Origin: a bacterium
GTDB taxonomy: Bacteria; Patescibacteriota; Minisyncoccia; Phycocordibacterales; UBA12088
NCBI GenBank assembly: GCA_003252295.1
Contig: QKEV01000003.1
Location: forward strand, 701-64,700
DNA: 64,000 bases
Direction of reading: 5' to 3'
Under the pieces are notes generated by a model, which saw only the letters and a program-made list of their open reading frames with translations, was not told where the DNA came from and did no database searches. Positions 1 through 48,159 of the stretch are shown piece by piece. Position 1 is the stretch's first letter; every line of letters begins with the position of its first letter. A program made the translations under genes and the position numbers.

Positions 1-3000
1 ACAAATGACACCCTCGAATTCATCAAGTGTAATGATGACTCCTGTTCGGATACTATCCAGCGTACGCTTGATGATGGTGGTGGAACAGACGTTGTTGGTG
101 GATACACCTCCATTGCCATCGGCACTGATGGCTTCCCGGTTGTGAGCTATCACGATAACACAAACGGCACTTTTGAATTCATCAAGTGTAACGACGTTTC
201 CTGTTCCGATGTTACCCAACGTACATTACATAGTACCGGAGGTGGGGGAGATGTTGGTGAGCACACCTCCATCACCACAGGTGTCGATGGTTTCCCGGTC
301 ATGATTTACCTTGATGTTAAAAATTATGAACTCGAGTTCATAAAGTGTAACGATGCTTCTTGTTCTGATGCTATACAACGTACGCTTGATGTTCCATATA
401 ATGTTAATTTGTACTATACCTCTATTGCCATCGGCACTGATGGCTTCCCAGTCATGAGTTACAGTAGCAATACAAGCCACTCCCTTGAATTTTTCAAATG
501 CAACTCCCTCGACTGTGCTCCAACAGGTTCATCGACCGCTCAACTCATAAACGACAACTCTGACCTCGACTACTACCTTGATAATGATGAGTACTCTGCC
601 ATAGCTTCGGATGATAGTACCTACGATGTACTCCGTGCAGGTACGAGTACCATGGGAGCAGTTGTGGCAAACAGCATCAACACGAACAGTACTGATCAGA
701 TACGGGTGACCTGGGATGGGCAGATAAGCGTTGCAACCACAACGAGCATACAGCTGTACAACTACAACAGTGACGGATGGGAAACACTCGATTCAAGTAC
801 GAGTCCTGCACCAGACACCGACTTTACCCTACAAGCAGTGCAGAGTACTTCTGTTGCTGACTACTACGATGTCTCTGATACGGTGACCGCACGTGTGATC
901 ATTGGTACCACCACGGACTACACCGAACTTAGTACCGACCAGCTCCTCATTGAAATGTCAGATGCATTCGTACGTGCCACCACTACCCAACGTGCCTACA
1001 TGTTCTACAACGACAACAACGGTGGTGTAGGGAGCAGTACTGTTCGGAGTGGAGCAAGTACGAGTACCGCCATCACAGGCGTCAAGAAAGGAGAACGTAT
1101 GGTGGTACGTCTCCAACTCGATACTGATGGGAATGATACCACTGCAGGTACGAGCACCCACACGTACCGCCTCCAATGGGAGAACTACACCGACGCACTG
1201 GGAACATGGAACGATCTCTCGACCACTACCGACATAGCATGGTCACTCTCGTATGACGGTGCACGATGGGGAAGAGGAGGACCGATACCACTTGCAACGA
1301 GTACCGGCTCCATAGACACCTGTAGCGGTAGTGCAACGTACGAAGGAGGACAGTTTGTGGCAGGCTTTGCTACAACAACCGCAGTAGCATTCCTCCCTGA
1401 TCAATGTAAAGACCTCGCCTACGCCATACACACCGGCAACGCTAAGCTCGGCAAGCAGTACCGACTCCGTGTCATTAACGGTGACGACTCAGAAGACCTT
1501 GCAACTGCAGGAGGAGCGTACAGTACCTACCCAACCTTCACGATCGAGAGTGCGACGAGTACACGGTACAGTAAGATGAGTAAGGGTGGGGAAGTGGCTA
1601 CTGTTCTTGATGATGGTGGGGAGGTGAATGATGTTGGTAAGCACGCCTCCATTGCCATTGGCACTGATGGTTTTCCGGTTATAACCTACCATGACAATAC
1701 TGACTATGATCTGGAATTTATCAAATGTAACGACCTTTCCTGCTCCGATACCACACAGCGCACGCTTGATGATGGTGGGGGTGTGAATGATGTTGGTGTG
1801 GCCACCTCTATTACTATTGGCACTGATGGTTTTCCGGTTATAACCTACCATGACAATACTGACCATGATCTGGAATTCATCAAGTGTAATGACGTTTCCT
1901 GCTCCGACACGACTCAGCGTACGCTTGATAGTGATAATTTATCTGGCCTGTACAACTCCATTGTCATCGGTACTGATGGATTCCCAGTGGTAAGCTATTT
2001 TGATGGACTCCTCAGCTTCATCAAATGTAACGACCTTTCCTGCTCCGATACCACCCAGCGTATCATTGATAATGGTGGTATGGTGAATACTGTTGGTGTG
2101 ACCACCTCTATTACTATCGGCACTGATGGTTTTCCGGTTATAACCTATTATGACGATACTGACTATGATCTGGAATTTATCAAGTGTAACGACGTTTTCT
2201 GCTCCGACACGACTCAGCGTACGCTTGATGATGGTGGTGGACAAATGGTTGGTTCCGCAACCTCCATTGCTATCGGCACTGATGGTTTTCCGGTTATAAC
2301 CTACCATAACAATACTGACTATGATCTGGAATTTATCAAGTGTAACGACGTTTCCTGCTCCGACACGACTCAGCGTACGCTTGATGATGGTGGTTACGCC
2401 ACCTCCATCACCATCGGCACTGACGGTTTTCTTGTGGTCAGTTACTATAATGATGCAACTGACCATGGTCTTGAATTCATCAAGTGTAATGACGTTTCCT
2501 GCTCCGACACGACTCAGCGTACGCTTGATAGTGATAATTTATCTGGCCTGTACAACTCCATTGTCATCGGTACTGATGGATTCCCAGTTATAAGTTACTA
2601 TAATGACACTGACAATAATCTTAATTTACTCAAATGCAACTCCCTCGACTGTGCCCCAACCGGTTCCTCGACCGCTCAACTCATAAACGACAACTCTGAC
2701 CTCGACTACTACCTCGACAACGACGAGTACAGTGCAGTAGGGAGTGACGATAGCACCTACGATGTAGTACGAGCAGGCACGAGTACCCTCGGAGCATTCG
2801 TCTTCAAGAAAAAGCACACGAACAGTACGGATAACATAGAAGCTACCTGGGACGGGCAGGTGAGTGACTCAGCTACCACCTCACTACAGATATACAACTA
2901 CACTTCAGAGAGTTGGGAGACACTTGAGTCAAGCTCTACGCCGGTAACCGATACCGACTTTACCCTAAACGGCACACAGTCCACTTCACTTGCTGACTAC

Positions 3001-3636
3001 TATGACCCGAGCAATGTCGCTACGCTACGCGTGCTCGTTGGTACCACCACCAACTACACCGAGCTCAGCAGTGACCTCGTGAGTGTCGTCTTTACCTCAG
3101 GATCATCCTTCACCTTTGCAACTGACATTTCCGGTTTCGGTGATATCAATGAAGGGGAGTACCGTGTTGCAACAGCAACGATCTCCATTAGTACTGAAAA
3201 CGAAGCAGGTTACAACGTGTCACTCATTTCTAATGATCGTACCATTACTGATACGTCTATGGACCTCACCACTGATGCTTCTGTAGGTATCATTGACCGT
3301 TTCGAGTGGTTGTCAGGAGCAGCAACAACCAGTGCGGGGAATGCCGTAAACATCGTACCTGGTAATGAGTTCTTGGCATTCCGTGTTATGACCGCAAGTG
3401 GCTCAGTGCCGTTTCTTGCACCAGACTGGTGGGGTACCGACGACACACTCTTCTCCATAAACAACCTCTGGGCAGGTATCGCGAGCTCAAGTGCTGGAAA
3501 CATTCAGATAGGGAACAGTAGTGTCGCTGCACCTTCCACAGAGTATGGCACCGTACAGTTCTACCTCGATGTACCATCGACACAGAAGACAGGATCGTAT
3601 ACTGGTGACATTACCTTTACGGTTATTGCGAATTAG
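1..3636 (+). CDS. giant tandem-repeat cell-surface protein (5' end lies upstream of window)
   Basis: Frame 1 is open from nt 1 and nt 1-141 already encode a repeat unit. At least ten 46-54 aa repeats share the consensus DGG..DVG..TSI.IGTDGFPVI.Y.DNTD.DLEFIKCND.SCSDTTQRTLD. Two copies of a ~160-aa module (nt 481-960 and 2617-3090) are present. The C-terminal ~170 aa is shared with the next ORF. Antisense ORFs in the track are repeat shadows. Confidence 0.75.
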   Translation, partial: TNDTLEFIKCNDDSCSDTIQRTLDDGGGTDVVGGYTSIAIGTDGFPVVSYHDNTNGTFEFIKCNDVSCSDVTQRTLHSTGGGGDVGEHTSITTGVDGFPVMIYLDVKNYELEFIKCNDASCSDAIQRTLDVPYNVNLYYTSIAIGTDGFPVMSYSSNTSHSLEFFKCNSLDCAPTGSSTAQLINDNSDLDYYLDNDEYSAIASDDSTYDVLRAGTSTMGAVVANSINTNSTDQIRVTWDGQISVATTTSIQLYNYNSDGWETLDSSTSPAPDTDFTLQAVQSTSVADYYDVSDTVTARVIIGTTTDYTELSTDQLLIEMSDAFVRATTTQRAYMFYNDNNGGVGSSTVRSGASTSTAITGVKKGERMVVRLQLDTDGNDTTAGTSTHTYRLQWENYTDALGTWNDLSTTTDIAWSLSYDGARWGRGGPIPLATSTGSIDTCSGSATYEGGQFVAGFATTTAVAFLPDQCKDLAYAIHTGNAKLGKQYRLRVINGDDSEDLATAGGAYSTYPTFTIESATSTRYSKMSKGGEVATVLDDGGEVNDVGKHASIAIGTDGFPVITYHDNTDYDLEFIKCNDLSCSDTTQRTLDDGGGVNDVGVATSITIGTDGFPVITYHDNTDHDLEFIKCNDVSCSDTTQRTLDSDNLSGLYNSIVIGTDGFPVVSYFDGLLSFIKCNDLSCSDTTQRIIDNGGMVNTVGVTTSITIGTDGFPVITYYDDTDYDLEFIKCNDVFCSDTTQRTLDDGGGQMVGSATSIAIGTDGFPVITYHNNTDYDLEFIKCNDVSCSDTTQRTLDDGGYATSITIGTDGFLVVSYYNDATDHGLEFIKCNDVSCSDTTQRTLDSDNLSGLYNSIVIGTDGFPVISYYNDTDNNLNLLKCNSLDCAPTGSSTAQLINDNSDLDYYLDNDEYSAVGSDDSTYDVVRAGTSTLGAFVFKKKHTNSTDNIEATWDGQVSDSATTSLQIYNYTSESWETLESSSTPVTDTDFTLNGTQSTSLADYYDPSNVATLRVLVGTTTNYTELSSDLVSVVFTSGSSFTFATDISGFGDINEGEYRVATATISISTENEAGYNVSLISNDRTITDTSMDLTTDASVGIIDRFEWLSGAATTSAGNAVNIVPGNEFLAFRVMTASGSVPFLAPDWWGTDDTLFSINNLWAGIASSSAGNIQIGNSSVAAPSTEYGTVQFYLDVPSTQKTGSYTGDITFTVIAN

Positions 3637-3788
3637 TGAGTAATCACATTTACTAAGCAATACAAAGGTAGTTTAGTAAATATTTATCAACAGGTGTGAT
3701 AAAAAAGTGTTCAGGTGCGTGGTATATTTAACCCAATACAAGGAGTATGCACTATCCCTTGCCATATTTAGTTTTTTAAAAAATAATC

Positions 3789-4484
3789 ATGCAGACACAA
3801 ATAATAAAATTCTCCAAGTTGCTTGAAAATGAAGTACAACTTGCAGGAGTATCTTTTTTGATTGCTTCTCTTATATTTGTCATGTCTTTTAGTTTTATTG
3901 CTTTTGGACAAGACTCATCAGGAGAAACACTTACCGTAACTGTACTAGAAGCTATGACCTTCACAACAGATGTGAGTGGTTTTGGTGATCTTACTCCAGG
4001 TACACCAAAATATGCAACCACGACAACTAATGTAGTTACAAATTCTGGTTCTGGTTTCAATCTTACATTATCAGGTGATGATCAGGGTACTACTGATACG
4101 GTAATGGATCTTACCACTGATGATACTGTTGGTATCACTGACCAGGAAGAGTGGGTTGCTGGAGCAGCAACAACTACAGCAGGAAATGCAGTGCTTGTTG
4201 GAGCACTTGATAACTCAGGAGATGTGCTTGCGTTTCGTATGATGACCGCATCCGGTACGGCAGAGGTCATTTCTACTAGCTGGTGGGGTGCTGATGATAC
4301 AGCTGGTAATGCACTCTGGGCAGGTATTGCTAGCTCAACGGTTGAAAGACAAATAGGAAACAGCTCTGTGTACTCATCTTCTGCAGCGGTAAACACTGTT
4401 CAGTACTACCTCGATGTACCAGCTTCACAGCAAACTGGTTCATACGATGGTGGTGTTACGTACACGGCAACAGCAAATATATAG
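3789..4484 (+). CDS. small secreted protein sharing the C-terminal domain of the giant repeat protein
   Basis: N-terminal hydrophobic signal/anchor (VSFLIASLIFVMSFSFIAFG). Residues ~55-231 align with the last ~175 aa of ORF 1..3636, sharing DVSGFGD, MDLTTD, AGAATT.AGNAV, LAFRMMTASG, WWG.DD, LWAGIASS, QIGNSSV and QYYLDVP..Q.TGSY. Confidence 0.7.
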   Translation: MQTQIIKFSKLLENEVQLAGVSFLIASLIFVMSFSFIAFGQDSSGETLTVTVLEAMTFTTDVSGFGDLTPGTPKYATTTTNVVTNSGSGFNLTLSGDDQGTTDTVMDLTTDDTVGITDQEEWVAGAATTTAGNAVLVGALDNSGDVLAFRMMTASGTAEVISTSWWGADDTAGNALWAGIASSTVERQIGNSSVYSSSAAVNTVQYYLDVPASQQTGSYDGGVTYTATANI

Positions 4485-4592
4485 AAATTCTGAACTGTTT
4501 TTGCCACAGTAGTGCTATTTTGACTATATCGACGCTGCTGTGTTGTCGTGCTACGATTTAAGCAATAACGGGTTAGTTGTACTGAGTGGCTA

Positions 4593-5555
4593 TTGAAAAA
4601 AATGGATCAATCACGCATAACATTATTGAAAGCATTGAAACAAAAACTGCAAACCCTGTTTGCAGTTTTTGCGTGCCTCATGCTCGCTGGTTCATTTGCA
4701 ACACCAGTGCATGCTGCAGTTGGTGTAAAAATACAGCCAATCAAGGTTTCGACAACAATAGATAAGGGGGCAGAATCTGTTGGATACATCACACTTACTA
4801 ACGAGAGTGATCAGCCGGAGGGTATCATAGTTGAAACTGCGGTTGAGGACTTTGTTCCACTTGAGGGTGGTTCAAATATTAACTTTGTCTCTAGAACTGA
4901 GGGACTTACCACAGCTGCTGATTGGATAACCCTTGATGTTCCTGAAACATTTGAACTTGCTCCCGGAGAACAGAAAAAGGTAAAGTACACCATACGTGCT
5001 CCGGAAGATGCAGAGCCAGGAAGTCACTTTAGTGTCGTGTTCTTTAAGGCATTAAAGAAGGATGATGAAGGGCAATTGAAGGTGGGAACACGAGTTGGTT
5101 CACTATTCTTTATTACGGTACCAGGAAACTATGAGCAGAAGGGTGAGATAGAAAGCTTTACTGCACCAGAATTTATACAGCGAGGTCCAGTTCCATTCAC
5201 CATACATTTCAAAAATACCGGTACCGTGCACTTTGAACCAAAAGGTACCATTGTGATAAAGAATATGTTTGGTAAGCAGGTTGCTGAGGTCCCTGTTGAG
5301 GGGCAGGTAGTGCTTCCTACCGGAGCCCGAGATCTTAATGCACAATGGAGTCCTTCAGGACTCATTGCAGGGAAGTATACAGCATCACTCTCTATAACTG
5401 ATGGTGCTGGTGAGGTGCTTACCGCACAGGATGTCACCTTTATTGCCTTTCCTATTTGGTATGCGGTTATCTTCTTCCTGATCTTTATCTTTATCTACTT
5501 GTTGCTTCGCTTCTTCCGAAAGCATGTGAACATTTCTATCTCGGTTGGTAAGTAA
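4593..5555 (+). CDS. secreted beta-rich protein with C-terminal TM anchor (DUF916/CscA-like architecture, tentative)
   Basis: Signal peptide ending AVHA, a ~260-aa ectodomain and a C-terminal TM (FPIWYAVIFFLIFIFIYLLL) with a basic tail. The architecture resembles WxL-interacting DUF916 proteins. The family assignment is by pattern only. Confidence 0.55.
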   Translation: MKKMDQSRITLLKALKQKLQTLFAVFACLMLAGSFATPVHAAVGVKIQPIKVSTTIDKGAESVGYITLTNESDQPEGIIVETAVEDFVPLEGGSNINFVSRTEGLTTAADWITLDVPETFELAPGEQKKVKYTIRAPEDAEPGSHFSVVFFKALKKDDEGQLKVGTRVGSLFFITVPGNYEQKGEIESFTAPEFIQRGPVPFTIHFKNTGTVHFEPKGTIVIKNMFGKQVAEVPVEGQVVLPTGARDLNAQWSPSGLIAGKYTASLSITDGAGEVLTAQDVTFIAFPIWYAVIFFLIFIFIYLLLRFFRKHVNISISVGK

Positions 5556-5568
5556 TCAGTAAAACACT

Positions 5569-6696
5569 GTGTCTGATAACACACGAACAGTTTCAAAATG
5601 GAAGTTTTTTCCAGCATTTTTGTTGGTCATGTGCTGTTGGTTCTACACTGTGCATGCTCAGACGTTGCAGGAAAGTTCTGATGAGATGCTCATCGTAACC
5701 ATACTGGGAGACACGGCATGTAGTGATGGGGTAGATAATGATGGTGACACTTTCATTGATTTTCCGAATGACCCAGGGTGTGGTTCATATACTGATGACG
5801 ATGAGAATGATGCTCCGATACCACAGTGTAGTGATGGGATAGATAATGATTCTGATGGTCTTATTGATTACCCAAATGATACTGGGTGTGATGATGCAAA
5901 TGATGATAATGAGTATGTGTACTCACCCCCACCTTCAGGGGGAAGTGGTGGAAGCGGGGGGAGTTCCCCAGACAAGACTGCAGTGCGGTTTAGAGGATTA
6001 ACATTTCCTGAAGCGGAGCTCTCTCTTTTGAAGAGTGGTCAGGTGATTGAGACTGATACAGCAAACTCGCTTGGTGAGTTTGATTTGCGCTTAAGTGACC
6101 TTGCTGAAGGGCAGTACAACTTTGTGATTTTTGGTATAGATTCTGAGGAATTGCGCTCTGAAACGAGCGCATTCAATGTTTCTATTGAGGAAGATGTAAC
6201 CACGTCTGTGACTGGTATTTACATGCCACCAACCATACGCCTTGATAAAATACAGGTTAAAAATGGAAACATACTTACCGTTGATGGATACGCTATGCCA
6301 TATGCTGAAGTCTATCTATATGTTGATGGGGATATAGACACGGTTGGTGTTGCAACATCGAGTGCTGCTGGAAAATGGCTGTATGAGTTAAATACTGGCA
6401 GTATTGGATATGGTGACCATACAATACGTGCACAAGCTGTGAAAGGTTCGTTTGAAAGCATGCTTTCAAATTCACTCTCATTCAAGATTGGTCTGAGTGA
6501 TATATTCCAAACGGTAACAGATTCATGTGGATCAGTTGCTGACGTAAACTATGACTGCCGAGTAAACTTGATAGATTTTTCTATTGTGGCTTTTTGGTAC
6601 AAGAAGGATGGTGCGCCATCAAATGTTGATATCAATAATGACGGGGTGGTGGATATAAAGGACTTTAGTATTATGGCGTATCATTGGACGGGGTAA
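5569..6696 (+). CDS. secreted protein with Cys-framed Asp-rich Ca-binding-like repeats and C-terminal dockerin type I domain
   Basis: Signal peptide present. Two copies of CSDG.DND.D..ID.PNDPGC. A Gly/Ser linker and an Ig-like middle region follow. The C-terminus carries a duplicated dockerin motif: DVNYDCRVNLIDFSIV and DINNDGVVDIKDFSIM, matching D.N.DG.V...D...I. Confidence 0.7.
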   Translation: MSDNTRTVSKWKFFPAFLLVMCCWFYTVHAQTLQESSDEMLIVTILGDTACSDGVDNDGDTFIDFPNDPGCGSYTDDDENDAPIPQCSDGIDNDSDGLIDYPNDTGCDDANDDNEYVYSPPPSGGSGGSGGSSPDKTAVRFRGLTFPEAELSLLKSGQVIETDTANSLGEFDLRLSDLAEGQYNFVIFGIDSEELRSETSAFNVSIEEDVTTSVTGIYMPPTIRLDKIQVKNGNILTVDGYAMPYAEVYLYVDGDIDTVGVATSSAAGKWLYELNTGSIGYGDHTIRAQAVKGSFESMLSNSLSFKIGLSDIFQTVTDSCGSVADVNYDCRVNLIDFSIVAFWYKKDGAPSNVDINNDGVVDIKDFSIMAYHWTG

Positions 6697-6706
6697 TAGG
6701 ATTTGT

Positions 6707-7621
6707 ATGTATAGAGTTCTATTTTTACAACTAGCTATCATCCATACATTACTGTTTTGTATATGCACGACTCCGCTCTATGCAGCTACGTACTACTTTG
6801 ATCCAGTGCATAATGAGGTAGGTGAAGGACAGGTCAATGAGGTTGCTGTACTCGTGAATACAAATGGTGAATATATTAATGCGTTTGAGGGTGCGGTAGT
6901 GATTCCTGATACTGTTTCAGTGGTAGATGTGAAGACAAATGACTCTGTTGTTGACCTTTGGCTCAGTGCCCCGGCGTTAACTGACGGTCGTATTACATTT
7001 TCCGGTATCGTACCGGGTGGTTTTGATGGTATTCGTTCAGCGTATGGTGATGAACGCAAATCTGGCATTTTGTTGCGTATTGTATACAAGGGTGAACATG
7101 TTGGATCTGAATCATTTATGTTTGAAGACATGAAAGCATACCTGCATGATGGTAAAGCAACTGAAGCTGAAGTTGACCTTGTCCCTGCTGTAGTTGATGT
7201 GGTGAGAGGGGGAATAAAAAGAGAAGAAACAGAAAAAAAAGATACCGTAAAACCTGAAGTATTTGAGCCATATATTGTCCAAGACAATGCACTTGCCGAT
7301 AGTGCTTACGTTGTTGTATTCCACACAAGCGATAGAGGTAGTGGTGTTGCTTACTATGAGGTGTCCGAGACTTCAACAGGAGAGAAAAAGTGGGTACGTG
7401 CAAATTCACCATTTGTACTCAAGTATCAAACTTGCTCAAATGATGTGTACGTGAAGGCCGTTGACTATGCAGGCAATGAACGTGTTGTACAAGCGGTTTG
7501 TGGGGAGGATGGTAGAATCGTTCAAGCATTTTCAGTACTGCCAAAATGGTTCTGGTATGTAGCAGCTCTACTATTTGTTTTGCTACTATTTGTGTATATT
7601 CGTCGTTCTCGTACTGGCTAG
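6707..7621 (+). CDS. membrane-anchored cohesin-like domain protein
   Basis: Signal peptide. The N-terminal domain (VNEVAVLVNTNGEYINAFEGAVVIPDTVSVVDV...ITFSGIV) resembles a cohesin fold and is paralogous to the N-terminal domain of the next ORF. A Y_Y_Y/Ig-like module (VYVKAVDYAGNE) and a C-terminal TM (WFWYVAALLFVLLLFVYI) follow. Confidence 0.55.
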   Translation: MYRVLFLQLAIIHTLLFCICTTPLYAATYYFDPVHNEVGEGQVNEVAVLVNTNGEYINAFEGAVVIPDTVSVVDVKTNDSVVDLWLSAPALTDGRITFSGIVPGGFDGIRSAYGDERKSGILLRIVYKGEHVGSESFMFEDMKAYLHDGKATEAEVDLVPAVVDVVRGGIKREETEKKDTVKPEVFEPYIVQDNALADSAYVVVFHTSDRGSGVAYYEVSETSTGEKKWVRANSPFVLKYQTCSNDVYVKAVDYAGNERVVQAVCGEDGRIVQAFSVLPKWFWYVAALLFVLLLFVYIRRSRTG

Positions 7622-7642
7622 TTAGGGTACACTGTAAGTACT

Positions 7643-9388
7643 ATGAGGTTATCTCGTGTTCTTTGGGCGTTTCTCTTTGTGTTACTGTTTGGGTTTGGAA
7701 CTGTTGCAGATGCTGCAACAATGTTTCCTTCACCCACTTCTGGAGAAAAAACAGTGGGGGCAGTGTTTTCTTTAAAGGTGTACGTTGAAAGCTCGTCACA
7801 AGCGATGAATGCAGCTGGTGCAACGCTGTCTTTTCCTACTGACATTCTTGAGGTTGTGTCGGTGAGTAGAGAAGATTCTATTATAAATCTATGGATACAA
7901 GAACCGACATTTAGTAATACATATGGAACGGTAAAGTTTGAAGGAATCGTTTTTGATCCTGGATTTAAGGGTGCTAGTGGGCAGGTAATCACGGTTCATT
8001 TTCGAGCGAAGAAAATCGGGGTGGCTCCTATTACACTCGATTCCGGGACAGTGCTTGCTAATGATGGTATGGCAACAGAAATCCTCACTGGTACGAAGAA
8101 AGCATCATACTCAATCGTTGCTCCAAGTGCTGTTGAGGTGGCACCATCGCCAGTGGTAGTGGATCCGGTGACAACACAGGTGAACCTCCCAGCACCGGTT
8201 ATTGTCTCAGATACACATCCTGACCAAGATGCTTGGTACAGTAACGGTAACCCTCATTTTTCATGGAAGAACGATAAAGGGGTTACAGCAGTTCGTACAC
8301 TTATAGACAGGGATTCTAACTCTGTTCCAACAGTGGTGTACGATCCTCCTGTAGAGGAGAAGCAAGTGCAAGATCTTGAAGATGGTGTTTGGTACTTCCA
8401 TGTACAAAGTAAGGATGAGAATGGTTGGGGTGGAATTGCACACTATGCGGTACATATAGATACAGAAAAACCACATGATCTCACTATAACCGAAATTGAA
8501 AAGATCGACACAACTACACCAACTGCTGGGTTTACTTTGAATGCTCAAGATGAGGTTTCTGGTATAGATTACTACGAGATTGAAGTAGGTGGTGAGACAG
8601 TTACTTGGAAGCCGGGAAGAGAAGCATTCATAACTTCCGTACTTGAACCGGGAGAATACACGCTTAATGTAAAAGTATTTGATCAAGCAGGAAATGTTAC
8701 TGGTGGTTGGGCAAAGTTCACTATTGAAGGAATTCCAACACCTACAGTTGATGGTACAGTGACAGAGATTACCGCAGGGGAATCCTTTGAGATACGCGGG
8801 AAAGTCACCCAAGGTACTCAGGTAGTGTATGCATACATTACTGATAGATTTGGTGAAGTGTACGAGTTCTCTACTTCTGATATAGCTCAAGATGGATCTT
8901 TTGTGCTCATGGTACAGGGTACACTTTCGCCAGGTGAGTACGTTGTGACACTGGTGGCTGAAGATGGGCAAGGTGCAAGAAGTAGAGAGAGTGGTAAGTT
9001 ACCTTTAACAGTACTCATCCCAGGTTTGTTTGGTCTGACAGTAATGGAGGTGTTGTATATAATTTGCGCTCTCATACTTCTCGTGTTGGTACTCTTTACC
9101 CTACTTATTTTCCGTCATAGGAAAACAGAGCATCTCATCAAGCATCTTGGAAAGGGTGTAGACGAGATGGATAAAAGTGTCGTAAAGGCAGCGGCTCTCC
9201 TCAAGAGTGATATTTCAAAACAGGTTGATGACATAAAAAACAAACGGTCAAGCGGTAAACTGACAAAAACAGAACGAGATCTTGTTGTTACCATGCAGCA
9301 GGACATGGCTGATCTTGAAAGGTATCTTAAGAAACAGATTACTGAAGTAGAAGAATTGCTTGGCAAAGAAGAGGAAAAAGAGGGCTAG
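7643..9388 (+). CDS. membrane-anchored cohesin-like domain protein with Ig-like modules and cytoplasmic coiled-coil tail
   Basis: Signal peptide. A cohesin-like N-terminal domain (VGAVFSLKVYVESS...ATLSFPTDILEVVSVS...VKFEGIV). Ig/Y_Y_Y-like modules (GVWYFHVQSKDENGW). TM LFGLTVMEVLYIICALILLVLVLFTLLIF, then a ~90-aa charged coiled-coil tail. Confidence 0.55.
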   Translation: MRLSRVLWAFLFVLLFGFGTVADAATMFPSPTSGEKTVGAVFSLKVYVESSSQAMNAAGATLSFPTDILEVVSVSREDSIINLWIQEPTFSNTYGTVKFEGIVFDPGFKGASGQVITVHFRAKKIGVAPITLDSGTVLANDGMATEILTGTKKASYSIVAPSAVEVAPSPVVVDPVTTQVNLPAPVIVSDTHPDQDAWYSNGNPHFSWKNDKGVTAVRTLIDRDSNSVPTVVYDPPVEEKQVQDLEDGVWYFHVQSKDENGWGGIAHYAVHIDTEKPHDLTITEIEKIDTTTPTAGFTLNAQDEVSGIDYYEIEVGGETVTWKPGREAFITSVLEPGEYTLNVKVFDQAGNVTGGWAKFTIEGIPTPTVDGTVTEITAGESFEIRGKVTQGTQVVYAYITDRFGEVYEFSTSDIAQDGSFVLMVQGTLSPGEYVVTLVAEDGQGARSRESGKLPLTVLIPGLFGLTVMEVLYIICALILLVLVLFTLLIFRHRKTEHLIKHLGKGVDEMDKSVVKAAALLKSDISKQVDDIKNKRSSGKLTKTERDLVVTMQQDMADLERYLKKQITEVEELLGKEEEKEG

Positions 9389-9480
9389 AAACTTAGGTAT
9401 CTATCCTTAATTACCCTTTACTGTAGTTTCTTGTAATAGAGATACTGCTGTAGGGGGTAGTTTTTGCTATACTTTCAGCA

Positions 9481-10182
9481 ATGAGAGAAGAACATGTTAT
9501 ATCGTACACATCCATACTCAAGGCATTTATTGTTTTTGTTGTTGGAGTTTCAGTTCTAGTTGCAGTTCAACTTTTTTCTGAGGAGAGTGAGGAAGATACC
9601 GGTACAGGTACACAAACTCAACAGGAGGAAACTGTTGCAAAAGAGACCGGGACACAAAAAACTAAAACACAAGGGAATGTAGATTGGAAAACATACGTTA
9701 GTGACGGCAAGATATTTCAAATACAGTATCCTGGAGAGTACTACTATGTGCGAGAGAAAACGAATGGAGCAGAAATGGTAAATATTTTTGAAGAAGATGA
9801 GTACAACAGGGCATATCGTGAGGCGCAGCAGACGTGTGTGGAGCGAGGTGAATCAGATTGTTCGGTGTACTACTCTCGTACAAGTTCAATGCTGATCGTC
9901 ATAAAGGATGATGGTAGAACAATCAAAGAGTATGCAAACATTTATGGTGCAACAAACAAAACCTGTACTGTAGGAGGGAAAAAAGGTTTATGCACCGTTG
10001 CATCTGGTTATACTGACCCAATACCGTATTTTTTGTATGAAGAGAATGGGAAAGTAGTGATATTTTCTAATGTAGGGACAGCCCAGAAACCAAGCGTTCC
10101 TCTGCCAACAGTTGATCCTCGAAGTAGTTTACTTAAAGACGAACGGGAACAAATAGTAGGTACGTTCCGTTTTTTGAAGTAA
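9481..10182 (+). CDS. hypothetical N-terminally anchored extracytoplasmic protein
   Basis: N-terminal TM (ILKAFIVFVVGVSVLVAVQLF), an acidic/Thr linker and a 6-Cys globular region. Last gene of the surface cluster, followed by a terminator. Confidence 0.45.
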   Translation: MREEHVISYTSILKAFIVFVVGVSVLVAVQLFSEESEEDTGTGTQTQQEETVAKETGTQKTKTQGNVDWKTYVSDGKIFQIQYPGEYYYVREKTNGAEMVNIFEEDEYNRAYREAQQTCVERGESDCSVYYSRTSSMLIVIKDDGRTIKEYANIYGATNKTCTVGGKKGLCTVASGYTDPIPYFLYEENGKVVIFSNVGTAQKPSVPLPTVDPRSSLLKDEREQIVGTFRFLK

Positions 10183-10206
10183 TTTATCACCTTACAAAAA
10201 GTTAAA

Positions 10207-10240
10207 ACAAAAAAGCTGGAGAAATCTCCAGCTTTTTTAA
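10207..10240 (+). terminator. bidirectional intrinsic terminator
   Basis: aaaaaaGCTGGAGAaatcTCTCCAGCtttttt: a perfect 10-bp stem flanked by an A-run and a T-run. Confidence 0.7.
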
Positions 10241-10341
10241 AATGAGCGCTCCAAGAGTGTATATGGCTAGCTTAATGTCAGAGCCATCCGTTTTTTTTCT
10301 GGGTTTTGCTATAGAAGCAATGTTTATTTCGTCTTTTCTGT

Positions 10342-10383
10342 TTGGGCTGTTTGATGGGCTGTTTGATGGGCTGTTTAGGTGGG
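10342..10383. repeat. 12-bp tandem repeat (gggctgtttgat x3.3)
   Basis: Direct tandem copies are visible in the sequence. The overlapping 60-aa ORF (MGCLMGCLMGCL) is an artefact of the repeat. Confidence 0.8.
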
Positions 10384-11037
10384 ATACCCAAAGATAACAT
10401 AGCAGTCAGTAGTGACCTTAATCATAAGACTCTTGGAGGCGCGATTCGTTCTGATAGCAGGGTAGCAAAATTACTTTGTATGTCAAATGGGATTATTAAC
10501 ACGTATACAAAAAAGAACCGGTAGTACAACTTGTACTACCGGCAAATACTGCCCAGTGTTTTGAAGCAGATAGATGAGGGGGCGCTCTATACTATCTGTT
10601 GAGAGGACACTAAACAGTAGTTTAGAATTGCCTCCAGTGAGGGTGAATGTTGATCTGATGTTTCAGAGCCCGTTTCATATGCAGAAGTGAGCGCTCGTTG
10701 CATGTACTGTACTGGACTACAGAGCATAGATGACTTCAACAATTCCCCCCGCTGGGGCAATGTCGTTTTCTGTGCGCAAGAATATATGATAATGTTTATT
10801 TGTCAATAGTATAGAAATAAAAAAATGATACCATAGCAGATGGAGTAGTTTTCCCACTAGTTGGTGAGGTTACGGCTCACCAAGGTGTCGTAGACGTCAA
10901 AAGGGCAGTCATAGTGATGTGACTGCCTTGTCTGTTGCATAGGCATATTGACCAAAAAGGTGAATCACCATATAGTCGAGAGAGGCACTATTACAAAGTA
11001 ATAGTACATTACTAAAAGAACTGGAAAGGGGTGCGAC

Positions 11038-11259
11038 ATGGTGCATTGTGGTGTTACATCGCGTACTGATGATTGGGAGAAGCAAGTGGTCTTTTTTGAG
11101 GAAGTTGGTGATAAAGAACTTAATGAGTTGTGTGCCGTTTTGAAAAAATGTAGAGAAGGCGAAGGTAATATACAAATAGTGAGAGAGCAGGCATATTATC
11201 TCATGGGAAAACATCCAACCAACATCCGCATTCTGCATTTTTGCAAACATCTTAATTAA
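11038..11259 (+). CDS. hypothetical small protein (orphan)
   Basis: 73-aa ORF in an AT-rich island with no recognisable motif. It overlaps an antisense ORF, and which strand is coding is uncertain. Confidence 0.25.
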   Translation: MVHCGVTSRTDDWEKQVVFFEEVGDKELNELCAVLKKCREGEGNIQIVREQAYYLMGKHPTNIRILHFCKHLN

Positions 11260-11293
11260 AACCGTTTGTTGAAATATTCATGCCGGAGTACAT

Positions 11294-11776
11294 ATGCTTA
11301 CTCCGGTTGTTTTATTAATTGTTATGTTTGACAAATACAAATACGATTGTATTTTAAAAACAGGATTAATATACAAAAAAACTTCAAACAGGAAGGGGGA
11401 TTACATGCAAGACTATATCTTGGTAACAAAAGCTGTTGCTACTGGGAGAGTATACATGACAACGTATTTTCAACCTGATAATGAAAAGGCTTTTCTAGAG
11501 GCAGAACGATTGTGTAGCACTCAAACAGACAATGAGGTTGTGTTTATAGGTAGGGTGGAAGAGTTAACATTAGATTTCAAACGTTATGTCGACAAGAATG
11601 ACTTTCCTTACCAGTATAGACAGTTGGTTCAACGATACAATGAACTAGAAAATAAAGAGGAAGGTGGTCTAGGAATACTTGCTGATGCAGTGTTGTTGGG
11701 TGAACAATTTCCTAATGAAAGCCTTATAATACATTTTGTAAATTTTTTGAAAGGACGTTTGAGGATGCATATGTAG
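11294..11776 (+). CDS. hypothetical protein (orphan; likely start at Met 11406)
   Basis: 160-aa ORF. The internal Met (MQDYILVTKAV) follows a GGAAGGGGG RBS-like stretch. No recognisable domain. A hairpin lies downstream at 11794-11810. Confidence 0.35.
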   Translation: MLTPVVLLIVMFDKYKYDCILKTGLIYKKTSNRKGDYMQDYILVTKAVATGRVYMTTYFQPDNEKAFLEAERLCSTQTDNEVVFIGRVEELTLDFKRYVDKNDFPYQYRQLVQRYNELENKEEGGLGILADAVLLGEQFPNESLIIHFVNFLKGRLRMHM

Positions 11777-11793
11777 TCGTTCAATGGTAGCGA

Positions 11794-11825
11794 CCCCGTC
11801 ACAAGCGGGGTTGCATTCTTTTTTA
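11794..11825 (+). terminator. possible intrinsic terminator
   Basis: CCCCGtcacaagCGGGG stem followed by a T-run 7 nt further on. The spacing is sub-optimal. Confidence 0.35.
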
Positions 11826-12032
11826 CTTTCCTGTATAGTGCTTGAGCTGATAGATTTTGCTGCGTAGAGCAGTAGAGCCATGTCTCAAGAGAGACCACTG
11901 GACAAAAAGCCGTACGGGTGTTTGTTCAGTACAGGCTTTATTTATTTAAGCTAAACTAATAACGATTGTGGCGACTATAGTTTACTTATCCTTTAGGATA
12001 GCAATACGACCTAAAAAGGTTTAGTACAAAAC

Positions 12033-12641
12033 ATGAAATTTATTCTTGCAACAAAAGAAAACATGACACAGGTCTTCGATGAAGAAGGTCGTGTTCATCC
12101 TGCTACTGTATTGAATGCGGGTCCAAACACCGTAACACAGATAAAGACAGATGAAACTGATGGCTACCGTGCAGTACAGGTTGGTTTTATGGATAGGAAA
12201 GAAAAGCGTGTGCACAAGGCACAGCGCCCAAAGGGGCTTTTCCGCTACTTCCGAGAGTTCCGAGCAAAAAATGGCGAAGCATTAGATTTTGAGACAGGGA
12301 AGATCATTACTGTAGATGAGGCATTTGCAGTAGGAGATAAAATCGCAGTTTCAGGACTTTCAAAAGCAAAGGGATTTCAGGGCGTAGTTAAGCGACATAA
12401 TTTTGCTGGTGGTCCACGAACACATGGTCAGAAGCATACCGAGCGTTCACCTGGATCAATTGGTGGAGGACTTCGTTCTCGTGTACCAAAGGGTATGCGC
12501 ATGGCGGGGCGTACCGGTGGAGAACGTGTTACAGTAAAGAATCTCACAGTAGTTGCTGTAGATAAGGAAAATAACCGGCTCATAGTCGAAGGAGCTGTTC
12601 CAGGCAGACGAGGTACACTTATTGAGGTAAGAGGTATATAA
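12033..12641 (+). CDS. rplC: 50S ribosomal protein L3
   Basis: MKFILATKENMTQVFDEEGRVHPATVL...GFQGVVKRHNFAGGPRTHGQ is a uL3 signature. Confidence 0.95.
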   Translation: MKFILATKENMTQVFDEEGRVHPATVLNAGPNTVTQIKTDETDGYRAVQVGFMDRKEKRVHKAQRPKGLFRYFREFRAKNGEALDFETGKIITVDEAFAVGDKIAVSGLSKAKGFQGVVKRHNFAGGPRTHGQKHTERSPGSIGGGLRSRVPKGMRMAGRTGGERVTVKNLTVVAVDKENNRLIVEGAVPGRRGTLIEVRGI

Positions 12642-12642
12642 C

Positions 12643-13323
12643 ATGGAAGCAAAGGTATACAACAAAGAAGGAAAAGAGGCAGGAAAGGTAACATTACCTG
12701 AAAGCGTCTTCGGTGTAGCATGGAACGATGATTTGGTGCATCAGGTAGTAGTCGCAATGCAGGCAAATGCGCGTATTCCATGGGCACATACAAAAGATCG
12801 TAGTGAGGTGCAGGGTACTGGCAAAAAACCATGGAAACAGAAGGGGACAGGAAGTGCACGACATGGCTCTAGACGGTCACCTATCTGGCGAACAGGAGGT
12901 GTTGCACATGGTCCACGAAATGAGAAGAGCTACAAGCAGAAAATAAACCGCAAGATGCGTTCAAATGCACTCTTTGCAGTACTTTCAAAGAAGTATGCAG
13001 ATGGTGAAGTACTTTTTGTAGATACATTGAGCTTTAATGAACCAAAGACAAAGGATGCAAAAGCATCACTCACTGCACTTGCGAGTGTGAAGGGATTTGA
13101 GGAACTTAAGACAAAACGTAAGAATGCAGCACTCATTGCAATGGTTGATAGTGATGATGCGGTTACAAAGAGTTTTCAGAATATGGGCAACGTGACACTC
13201 GAAGGTGTACGTAACCTAAACCCAGTTGATCTTCTTAAGAACAAGTACCTCGTGCTTGTTGGAGGGGAACATGCGGTGAAGGTTATTGAAAGCCGAGTTG
13301 GTACAACTAAGGAGAGTAAATAG
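12643..13323 (+). CDS. rplD: 50S ribosomal protein L4
   Basis: KPWKQKGTGSARHGSRRSPIWRTGGVAHGP matches the uL4 core. The start overlaps the rplC stop. Confidence 0.95.
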   Translation: MEAKVYNKEGKEAGKVTLPESVFGVAWNDDLVHQVVVAMQANARIPWAHTKDRSEVQGTGKKPWKQKGTGSARHGSRRSPIWRTGGVAHGPRNEKSYKQKINRKMRSNALFAVLSKKYADGEVLFVDTLSFNEPKTKDAKASLTALASVKGFEELKTKRKNAALIAMVDSDDAVTKSFQNMGNVTLEGVRNLNPVDLLKNKYLVLVGGEHAVKVIESRVGTTKESK

Positions 13324-13327
13324 AGGT

Positions 13328-13735
13328 ATGGCGATTTTCAATAAAAAAGAAGAAAAGAAGGAAACAAAGAAGCCAGTGGCAAAGAGAAAGGCTGCTCCTG
13401 TAAAGGAAAAGAAGGCAATAAAGCCAAAGAGCGATGCTGGGGCAAACCTTACAAAGGCACCAGGACGTATCATCAAGGCGCCTGTCATTACTGAGAAGGC
13501 GGTAAAAATGACCATGCAGAATGCATACGTGTTTGAAGTAGCGATGGATGCCACAAAGAACGATGTAAAAACTGCGGTACGTGCGCTCTACAAGGTAGAT
13601 CCTGTAAAGGTGAATATGGTACGAAAGAATCCACGTGCGTATGTAGCACGCTTCCGTAACCGACGTGGCGTTAAGTCAGGTATAAAGAAAGCATATGTTT
13701 TTCTCAAGAAGGGAGAAAAAATTGATCTTGCATAA
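13328..13735 (+). CDS. rplW: 50S ribosomal protein L23 (Lys/Ala-rich N-terminal extension)
   Basis: C-terminal ITEKAVKMTMQNAYVFEVAMDATKNDVKTAVRALYKV is uL23. Start Met at 13328 follows the rplD stop. The ORF track starts earlier, in overlap. Confidence 0.9.
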   Translation: MAIFNKKEEKKETKKPVAKRKAAPVKEKKAIKPKSDAGANLTKAPGRIIKAPVITEKAVKMTMQNAYVFEVAMDATKNDVKTAVRALYKVDPVKVNMVRKNPRAYVARFRNRRGVKSGIKKAYVFLKKGEKIDLA

Positions 13736-38011: not shown

Positions 38012-38064
38012 AAGAAACACTAATACCTGCAATGCTATCCGCATTACAGGCGTAGTGTATCTAG

Positions 38065-38137
38065 TGCGCGCACCAGGACTCGAACCTGGGACCACAGAGG
38101 TATAAGCTCTGCGCTCTACCAACTGAGCTATACGCGC
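38065..38137 (-). tRNA. tRNA with anticodon TAT (reads AUA; tRNA-Ile(UAU)-type)
   Basis: Manual fold of the reverse complement gives a 73-nt cloverleaf. Acceptor GCGCGTA/TGCGCGC, D-arm GCTC-AGTTGGTA-GAGC, anticodon arm CAGAG-CTTATAC-CTCTG, T-arm CCAGG-TTCGAGT-CCTGG, discriminator A. No encoded CCA. Confidence 0.75.
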
Positions 38138-47004: not shown

Positions 47005-48159
47005 ATGGATCTATCGTTTTTGGATCAGGCGAAAAAAATGTTCGAAAAAAAGGTTCTCTCACGCGGTGTTGAGAGTGTTTTGGGTATCGACATTGGTTCA
47101 TCTGCAATAAAATTAGTGCAGTTAAAAAGTAGTCAAGGAACAGCTACGCTTGAGACGTACGGTGAGATATCACTTGGTCCCTATGCAGAGAAGGAGGTGG
47201 GACAGGCAACCAACTTGCCACCTGAAAAGCTTGCAGAAGCTCTGAAAACACTCATTACCGAGGCCAATGTTACCACTGATGTTTGTGGTGTATCAGTTCC
47301 TTTTGCCTCAAGTTTAGTGAAACTCATTGAGGTCCCTCCACTTGATCTGAAAAAACTTCAGACAGTAGTACCAATTGAAGCAAGAAAGTACATACCAGTA
47401 CCTATTTCTGAAGTGCAGCTCGATTACTTTATTATTCCTGAGACCGAACAGAAGCTATTTCTTGGTGCGAAAAATATCAATGATGCGGAAGGTCAAGAGC
47501 TCAAGAATCGAATGGTGCTCATTGTGGCAATGCATAATGATATTTTGAGGAGGTATACAGAAACCATTAAGGTAGCAGGGTTAAATGCCGAGTTCTTTGA
47601 GATCGAGGTATTTTCAAATATACGCTCTACTGTTGCTCATAGTCTAGCACCAGTCGCAATAATTGACCTTGGTGCAACAACAAGCAAACTATACCTTGTC
47701 GAACTTGGTATCGTGCTTGCATCCCATGTCATCCCTGTTGGTTCTCAAGACATTACAAAGTCACTTGCAAAGAGTACACATATGACCATGGCAAAGGCAG
47801 AGGAGATCAAACGGCAGGCAGGTATACTTTCAGGGGTTGAGAATGGGGATGCTGCGCGCGTGTCACATGCAGCAACGCTTACCATGGAGCAGATCTTTGC
47901 TGAGGCGCGTAGGGTGCTACTTGGTTTTCAACGTAAGTACAACAAAGTCATCACTAAGGTGATCCTGACTGGAGGTGGTGCAACCCTCAAAGGGCTTCCT
48001 GAGTTTGCACGGCAGCAACTTGAGCTTGAGATCGAGGTGGCAAATCCTTTCCTGCATGTTCAGGCACCTTCCTTTTTACAGGACACATTGGAACAAGCGG
48101 GACCTGACTTTGCTGTGTCTGTTGGTCTTGCGCTCCGTGTTTTACATGATAGTAGGTAA
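47005..48159 (+). CDS. pilM: type IV pilus assembly protein PilM (actin-like ATPase fold)
   Basis: VLGIDIGSSAIKLVQL..., an FtsA/PilM-like fold, and its position ahead of pilNOP. Confidence 0.85.
   Translation: MDLSFLDQAKKMFEKKVLSRGVESVLGIDIGSSAIKLVQLKSSQGTATLETYGEISLGPYAEKEVGQATNLPPEKLAEALKTLITEANVTTDVCGVSVPFASSLVKLIEVPPLDLKKLQTVVPIEARKYIPVPISEVQLDYFIIPETEQKLFLGAKNINDAEGQELKNRMVLIVAMHNDILRRYTETIKVAGLNAEFFEIEVFSNIRSTVAHSLAPVAIIDLGATTSKLYLVELGIVLASHVIPVGSQDITKSLAKSTHMTMAKAEEIKRQAGILSGVENGDAARVSHAATLTMEQIFAEARRVLLGFQRKYNKVITKVILTGGGATLKGLPEFARQQLELEIEVANPFLHVQAPSFLQDTLEQAGPDFAVSVGLALRVLHDSR

Follow-up and report, generated by a model that had tools for sequence, protein, structure and literature searches.

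Little is known of the way in which members of the Candidate Phyla Radiation (CPR, Patescibacteria) recognise their hosts and hold on to them, and large multi-domain surface proteins with propellers have been described for these bacteria in general terms (PMC5220378). The closest described filament is the Pam pilus, reported in 2026 by cryo-electron microscopy for Ca. Mycosynbacter amalyticus (Troman et al., bioRxiv 10.64898/2026.03.03.709456). Its pilins consist of a beta-sandwich N-terminal domain, a linker that passes as a donor strand to the adjacent subunit, and an Ig-like C-terminal domain that is truncated; they are accompanied by two putative chaperones, PamC and PamD, which are PapD/FimC-like and keep a C-terminal transmembrane (TM) helix, and by the single-domain PamT, the proposed tip. 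By the authors' own statement the way in which Pam pili make contact with the host is not known, and the main text of their paper includes no adhesin and mentions neither Kaiserbacteria nor Paceibacterota (bioRxiv 10.64898/2026.03.03.709456). The closest described propellers are the Photorhabdus lectins PLL and PHL, which offer many equivalent binding sites between the blades, the fucose pockets of PHL being lined by two Trp each (PMC5584973). Seven-bladed propellers also form the heads of PilX2 and PilY1, and PilX2 is required for host binding by TM7x (bioRxiv 10.1101/2024.11.25.624915). Here we compare these systems with a locus at the left edge of a 64,000-nt stretch of DNA (contig QKEV01000003.1 of assembly GCA_003252295.1, positions 701 to 64,700; this whole stretch is called the window in the following): a giant gene that is cut by the window edge and the cassette of genes that follows it.

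On balance, we read the giant gene as encoding a pilus-borne, lectin-like adhesin of a Kaiserbacteria-like Patescibacterium (Parcubacteria). The evidence is computational throughout and comprises the repeats, fold prediction, family size, domain homologies and conservation of the cassette. The gene would give rise to a large secreted adhesin displaying two seven-bladed propellers of the PLL/PHL fold type, held apart by jelly-roll modules and a further beta domain that would act as spacers. The variable loops of the blades would contact the ligand, and binding would be multivalent, its target being a polymer of repetitive structure (probably a glycan) at the surface of a host or partner cell. 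The C-terminal domain (CTD, ~180 amino acids (aa)), a presumed distant relative of the strand-accepting Ig-like domain of the CPR Pam pilins, would by strand complementation build the adhesin into, or let it cap, a donor-strand-exchange fibre made of a 231-aa protein that contains only this domain, and a membrane-anchored protein of ~310-320 aa would assist in the assembly of the fibre. The logic would be that of FimH and PapG, in which a binding head is carried by a pilin domain. New in this locus are: i) a discrete, Cys-clasped, PLL-like propeller family of more than 14,000 clusters without a database model; ii) the fusion of such a propeller to a distant Pam-pilin-like tail; and iii) the place of the propeller-CTD gene as the first of a conserved cassette of Parcubacteria.

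In frame 1 of the + strand no stop codon occurs before the one at 3634-3636, which leaves 1,211 open codons from nt 1, and the gene is truncated at its 5' side by the window edge, as had been noted in an initial annotation made from the sequence alone. Scans for the missing 5' end, of genome contigs with aa 172-540 and of metagenome contigs with an exact 50-mer, gave no match. That annotation described most of the protein as one tandem array. The repeats cover ~43% of the visible protein (aa 1-172 and 535-885), and we find instead six domains arranged as a mosaic, namely propeller A (partial), module X1, a mid domain, propeller B, module X2 and the CTD (Table 1). Module X directly follows a propeller in eleven homologues too. 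The mid domain is matched by neither a Pfam nor an NCBIfam model; nine homologues cover more than 80% of it in alignment, and it is related (HHalign probability 98.5%, E 1.6e-15) to a 'HYRWR...YCFR' domain that directly precedes the CTD in two CPR proteins, of 457 aa (locus L004) and 628 aa (locus L006). All 24 Cys residues occur in conserved pairs (eleven blade C-x4-C pairs and C441/C469), a pattern expected of a disulfide-bonded extracellular protein. Homologues with the same modules (P0002, P0006 and P0007) start with signal peptides or TM segments, and in one of these, P0006 (1,781 aa), the order mid domain, propeller, module X and CTD is the same. Elsewhere the partner domains of the propeller are extracellular ones (SLH, PKD, fn3, LamG and collagen). 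The signal peptides of the homologues, these fusion partners and the pairing of all Cys residues together point to extracellular use.

What says most about the use of the protein is the pilin-like domain at its C-terminus together with the cassette that follows the gene; the initial annotation had missed both. The homologues of the CTD (n = 37) are nearly all stand-alone CPR proteins of 225-238 aa without annotation. Comparison with the NCBIfam model NF058581 (CPR_Pam_pilin_C; cut-off 55 bits, profile length 148) gave 22.3 bits for the CTD of the giant protein (E 1.1e-4; profile positions 109-147 in the best of two stretches), 16.5 bits for the 231-aa neighbour (E 0.0067; positions 6-147) and 32.9 bits for the best relative, P0157 (E 5.9e-8; positions 4-146). 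In the family alignment A2 the model is matched by 16 of the 28 members, that is by nearly every CTD carrier, with a best E of 6.7e-8 in that scan. Module X2, a predicted beta-sandwich whose Foldseek matches are weak and of a generic jelly-roll kind (CBM4, MAM, phage baseplate or receptor-binding domains), precedes the CTD in such a way that its last strand (aa ~1020-1032) continues into it. Among the homologues of the ~320-aa protein and the CTD, most of which bear no taxon name, the named ones all belong to the CPR (Parcubacteria, Kaiserbacteria, Paceibacterota and Collierbacteria). Sequence and profile searches of the PDB sequences with module X and the CTD returned nothing meaningful. A resemblance of the CTD, the small protein and the 320-aa protein to the Firmicutes-type WxL/DUF916 cluster was considered and dropped, as no Pfam match was obtained at E ≤ 1.

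The cassette has the order: variable CTD-ending protein, small CTD-only protein, ~310-aa TM protein, dockerin-like protein, protein of ~305 aa and protein of ~500-580 aa. This order is kept in L006 (GCA_964360995.1), in L010 and, up to the end of the contig, in L004 (Parcubacteria C7867-002); in L006 and L010 the conserved series includes orthologues of the genes for the 375-, 304- and 581-aa proteins. The small CTD protein has orthologues that are 54-60% identical in L004, L006, L010 and L011, and the ~310-aa TM protein is always encoded directly 3' of it (five loci, plus seven pairs of matches across the two homologue searches); in L011 this pair occurs without an upstream CTD protein. The first gene is the variable one: the upstream CTD proteins elsewhere measure 457, 458 and 628 aa and differ in their N-terminal parts, and the protein of the window (>1,211 aa) is an expanded, propeller-bearing version. 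None of the 248 homologues of the 320-aa protein has a Pfam domain; its architecture and position make it a candidate chaperone. In the interval between the giant gene and the next gene no terminator or promoter signal was found above the expectation from shuffled sequence.

Several observations weigh against the reading as a pilus-borne lectin. The N-terminus of the giant protein, and hence its signal peptide, lies outside the window; the initial designation as a surface protein is supported only indirectly, by the signal peptides of homologues and by context. All matches to NF058581 remain under the cut-off of 55 bits, which indicates a distant relationship rather than membership by the NCBI criterion, and the 628- and 457-aa CTD proteins and P0006, when scanned whole, gave no match to this model. 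The CTD was modelled with a predicted local distance difference test score (pLDDT) of only 65-87, and its Foldseek matches to two-domain adhesins of the FimH type are weak (E ~5e-4, TM-score ~0.2). The 320-aa protein has no sequence match to any chaperone or Pam model, nor to a PDB sequence. P0006 and P0012, which share the propeller-X-CTD architecture, lie outside any such cassette, in unrelated neighbourhoods. Finally, there is not a single Trp in aa 1-172 and aa 530-895, and the Trp pairs that bind fucose in PLL/PHL are therefore absent; sugar binding is thus not implied by homology and the ligand cannot be inferred from PLL/PHL.

Part of these observations would also fit an adhesin or S-layer-like component that is anchored in the envelope, in which the CTD serves as a docking or oligomerisation domain on the cell surface and no pilus is involved; the CTD might then bind the membrane-anchored 320-aa protein or join a cohesin/dockerin-like set. 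Besides the sub-threshold Pam-model matches and the occurrence of P0006 and P0012 without cassette, the dockerin-like protein and the two TM-anchored Ig-like-domain proteins of the cassette speak for this alternative, as does the anchoring of propeller homologues elsewhere by SLH domains. We nevertheless consider it rather unlikely: the 231-aa protein consists of a signal peptide and the CTD only, which fits a polymerising subunit better than an anchor, the matches to the pilin model span the whole profile in several members, and the relationship to Pfam WxL/DUF916 was looked for and not found. Returning to the pilus-borne adhesin, a more specific form of this proposal can be put forward tentatively, as a possibility that we doubt more than we trust: a host-recognition adhesin of a Parcubacterial Pam-like pilus, with the first gene of the cassette as a swappable host-range head and the propeller as a new class of multivalent lectin.

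The propeller was modelled with AlphaFold2 (AF2; aa 530-895, on an alignment of 22 propeller segments). The initial annotation had suggested a beta-propeller-like blade with disulfide or metal stabilisation at an invariant Cys pair, and as to the blade the prediction agrees: propeller B forms a closed, seven-bladed propeller of 28 strands (7 x 4; pLDDT 92.8, predicted TM-score (pTM) 0.91), in which the N-terminal strand EVATVLDD replaces the strand D that is missing from the last blade (velcro closure). This closure, together with the equal length of ~350 aa in dozens of homologous domains, suggests that propeller B has been assigned the right number of blades. Propeller A shares 66% identity with the second half of propeller B, and its last blade ends with KCNSLDCAPTG where strand D is usual; we assume that it, too, is seven-bladed. 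The two Cys residues of the blade stand where strand 3 ends and in the loop that leads into strand 4. The pair recurs in every blade of the 22 aligned propellers and is thus a hallmark of the family; most likely it forms a disulfide clasp on the strand 3-4 hairpin.

The repeat had not been assigned to any named family, and the searches bear this out. The Pfam scan of the giant protein gave no match for the repeat, and none to a named propeller repeat (Kelch, NHL, YVTN, WD40, BNR, FG-GAP or LVIVD) even at E ≤ 1; Kelch, NHL and YVTN are the families that the initial annotation had named as those whose appearance would count against it. Among the NCBIfam models only CV39L (NF052350) responded, with 25.1 bits (E 8.1e-6; aa 751-921) at a curated cut-off of 350. 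Searches of the PDB sequences with phmmer and with the 22-sequence propeller profile retrieved no PLL/PHL and nothing else that was meaningful. Pfam DUF1936 (PF09151, cut-off 25 bits) has no match in the giant protein; it is matched at E ≤ 0.1 by 7 of the 22 homologous propellers, and its cut-off is passed by three homologues that were scanned whole only through the sum of 11-14-aa LKVAKCxNAAC stretches. Nor is the repeat a rare one: when 1.84 billion cluster representatives (50% identity clusters) were searched with a profile, repeat-bearing proteins numbered 20,538 at E ≤ 1e-3, with at least 14,186 of them reaching E ≤ 1e-10 and 6,512 reaching E ≤ 1e-30; certain of these proteins exceed 7,000 aa and carry several propellers, so that we are dealing with a very large propeller family that has no Pfam or NCBIfam model. 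The named sources include Paceibacterota, Peribacteria, Komeilibacteria, Dehalococcoidales, Acidimicrobiia, Nitrospirae, Holophagales, Omnitrophica and Woesearchaeota. One homologue, P0088, carries a prepilin-type N-terminal cleavage/methylation domain (PF07963, PF08334), which indicates that propellers of this family are mounted on type IV pilin-like proteins as well.

When the model of propeller B was compared with the PDB by Foldseek, the top matches were the Photorhabdus lectins PLL, PLL2-5 and PHL (E 1e-15 to 1e-13, TM-score 0.73-0.82, 13-17% identity; the best of them at E 1e-15 with TM-scores of 0.75-0.82), with CV39L lower (TM-score 0.71). Judged from the predicted structure, the propeller resembles the multivalent PLL-type propeller in architecture and is not a member of the PLL family. 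Sialidases, a pseudaminidase and glycoside hydrolases of the BT3686 type appear in the same list (E 1e-11 to 1e-8), and the propellers could accordingly be catalytic (sialidase- or glycoside-hydrolase-like) parts of a secreted enzyme. We hold this to be very improbable, because the matches to six-bladed sialidases and glycoside hydrolases are poorer than those to the lectins (TM-score 0.53-0.69, with a worse root mean square deviation), Pfam gives no BNR or glycosidase match, the near-identical blades leave no unique active-site blade, and the conserved residues are the repeated structural ones.

The repeat pattern itself is well beyond chance. The strand-A motif TSIxIGTDGF occurs ten times (aa 36, 89, 140, 549, 602, 652, 702, 754, 801 and 852), an eleventh, N-terminally truncated unit occupies aa 1-24, and the spacing is 47-53 aa (141-159 nt), giving 3.5 visible units in propeller A and 7 in propeller B, with C-x4-C invariant in each. 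Tandem Repeats Finder reported a period of 159 at 1606-2393 (5.1 copies) and, at a higher order, one of 459 at 1607-2521 (2.0 copies). The near-identical copies that had been pointed out were confirmed: the pair 1871-1990 and 2471-2590 agrees at 117 of 120 nt (97.5%), and longer pairs at 91% (1845-2005 and 2445-2605) and 90% (1717-1929 and 2017-2229). Blades B2, B4 and B5 are 94% identical to each other in DNA, the remaining blade pairs 50-85%; the few differences between these three are non-synonymous as often as synonymous and are concentrated in the loop that connects strands 2 and 3 (Y-[HY]-[DN]-[ND]-T-D-[HY]-D). The recurrence of the non-repeat module was likewise recovered, as part of a duplicated block of propeller and ~150-aa module with copies 2,136 nt apart: the module at 484-960 and its downstream copy are 71-80% identical in DNA (484-783 and 2620-2919, 75%; 891-940 and 3027-3076, 80%) and 67-70% in protein, and the propeller that precedes the module was duplicated along with it (66% identical in protein over 180 aa). 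The expansion had been called very recent. From these identities this would hold for the subset of blades, which appear to have been homogenised recently (94-97.5%), probably through intragenic recombination or gene conversion between repeats; the 2.1-kb duplication, with only 71-80% DNA and 66-70% protein identity, would be older.

That the repeat structure is in part an artefact, near-identical blades having been collapsed or expanded in assembly, is suggested by blades that are up to 97.5% identical over 120 nt and by the fragmentation of the Logan short-read assembly of SRR7216773 in this region, from which no contig was retrieved over nt 1-4355, and is hardly credible given the intact frame of 3.6 kb, the exactly seven blades of propeller B with a unique N-terminal closing strand and last blade, matching homologue units of ~350 aa and modelled at the high pLDDT given above, the domain order shared with P0006, and Logan contigs that are 100% identical to the window in the overlap (4356-13730). 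The Logan assembly also breaks at 4356, 6710/6754 and 12383-12412, despite non-repetitive sequence there.

Table 1. Domains of the giant protein and genes of the downstream cassette (nucleotide positions in the window; residues of the visible giant protein)
Feature	Position (nt)	Residues (aa)	Strand	Characteristics
Propeller A, C-terminal part (one cut and three full blades)	1..516	1-172	+	motifs; Cys pairs 10/15, 63/68, 116/121, 167/172
Module X1, ~150-aa jelly-roll beta-sandwich	517..966	173-322	+	67-70% identical to X2
Mid beta domain	967..1605	323-535	+	conserved Cys pair C441/C469
Propeller B, complete, seven-bladed	1606..2655	536-885	+	AF2 model m18f1db3ad6f8; seven C-x4-C pairs
Module X2, jelly-roll beta-sandwich	2656..3090	886-1030	+	AF2 model m3735dce6dac7, residues ~40-145 with pLDDT ~95
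CTD and stop codon, Pam-pilin-C-like	3091..3636	1031-1211	+	sub-threshold match to NF058581
231-aa candidate pilus subunit	3789..4484		+	signal/TM segment, short LTVTV strand, CTD only; 52% identical to CTD of giant protein
317/320-aa candidate membrane-anchored assembly factor	4602..5555		+	signal peptide, ~270 aa beta-rich, C-terminal TM helix
375-aa secreted dockerin-like protein	5569-6696		+	acidic disulfide repeats; Dockerin_1 borderline (23.4 bits, cut-off 22.9)
304-aa secreted protein, C-terminal TM	6707-7621		+	Ig-like domains (Big_13/PKD); paralogous to 581-aa protein
581-aa secreted protein, C-terminal TM	7643-9388		+	Ig-like domains (Big_13/PKD); N-terminal domain paralogous to 304-aa protein

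Some further observations concern the cassette and its relatives. The repeats of the 375-aa protein have the form CSDGxDNDxDxxxDxxxDxGC, with a sub-threshold match to the NCBIfam 'acidic double-disulfide repeat'. The 304- and 581-aa proteins show sub-threshold matches of the OmpL47 barrel type, and their N-terminal ~150 aa look cohesin-like by eye, a likeness that no model supports. In locus L003 a 60-aa open reading frame (ORF; 3603-3785), 1.3 kb 3' of the gene for P0012, shows 65% identity to the C-terminal 43 aa of the CTD and is probably the remnant of a small CTD gene. In L010 a sortase gene (PF04203; 16561-17184) comes after a 370-aa gene that follows the cassette, and no sortase was found adjoining the cassette of the window.

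The window is chromosomal and contains a ribosomal-protein operon and the genes for SecY, FtsH, RecG and LigA; for ribosomal protein L2 the identity is 84-86% to the proteins from metagenome-assembled genomes of Candidatus Kaiserbacteria and of an uncultured Patescibacterium. GC skew is positive in 29 of 32 bins of 2 kb, the exceptions, slightly negative, being the first two bins and the one at 34-36 kb. The + strand carries nearly all long ORFs, which together with the skew suggests that the window is part of one replication arm with genes co-oriented with replication. The sole tRNA gene in the 64 kb encodes tRNA-Ile with anticodon TAT (UAU) (38064-38137, - strand); most bacteria read AUA by a lysidine-modified CAU tRNA. 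Type IV pilus genes are present at 47005-48159 and 50040-51941 (PilM and a PilB-like T2SSE ATPase with MshEN domain). With the proposed fibre, the organism would have two different filament systems, and two filament systems have been reported in other CPR bacteria.

As we read it, the cassette encodes a variable binding protein on a pilin-like tail, here a double lectin-like propeller, beside a candidate fibre subunit, and thereby offers a concrete candidate for the recognition step in lineages of the Parcubacteria group (Kaiserbacteria, Paceibacterota). If this is true, the giant protein would be the first adhesin candidate for the Pam pilus class, and the Cys-clasped propeller found across CPR, DPANN and other phyla would constitute a new class of multivalent lectin. 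The repeat family merits a database entry and biochemical characterisation.

Set against the described systems, the propellers of the window share with PLL and PHL (PDB 8Q83, 5MXG, 5C9L) the seven four-stranded blades of ~50-aa repeats, here as predicted by AF2. They differ from these lectins in sequence (13-17% identity, with no sequence or profile match), in the invariant intrablade C-x4-C, where PHL has a single intersubunit disulfide, and in being domains of a large mosaic protein, whereas PLL and PHL are free lectins of 40 kDa. CV39L/BP39L (PropLec7C; PDB 6GXS) is a seven-bladed lectin as well and the sole named sequence model with any signal, but the structural alignment contains only 9% identical residues and the score is far below the cut-off. 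The tip adhesins of chaperone-usher pili, FimH and PapG, likewise place a receptor-binding head on a pilin module that joins the fibre, although these, like PilY1 and PilX2, belong to other pilus classes and are not homologous, the propeller of PilX2 being made of RCC1 repeats. In comparison with the Pam pilus (NF058581, NF058579), the likely major subunit here is a single domain with a short N-terminal strand instead of N-terminal domain, linker and CTD, binding domains account for more than 1,000 aa of the product of the first cassette gene, whereas no adhesin is described for Pam, and dockerin/cohesin-like genes take the place of the reported pam gene set. As in Pam, the named homologues are restricted to the CPR, a predicted beta-sandwich is followed by a CTD with sub-threshold matches to the Pam pilin C-terminal model, and the gene is adjoined by one for a paralogous small subunit and then by one for a secreted protein with a C-terminal TM helix, comparable to PamC and PamD.

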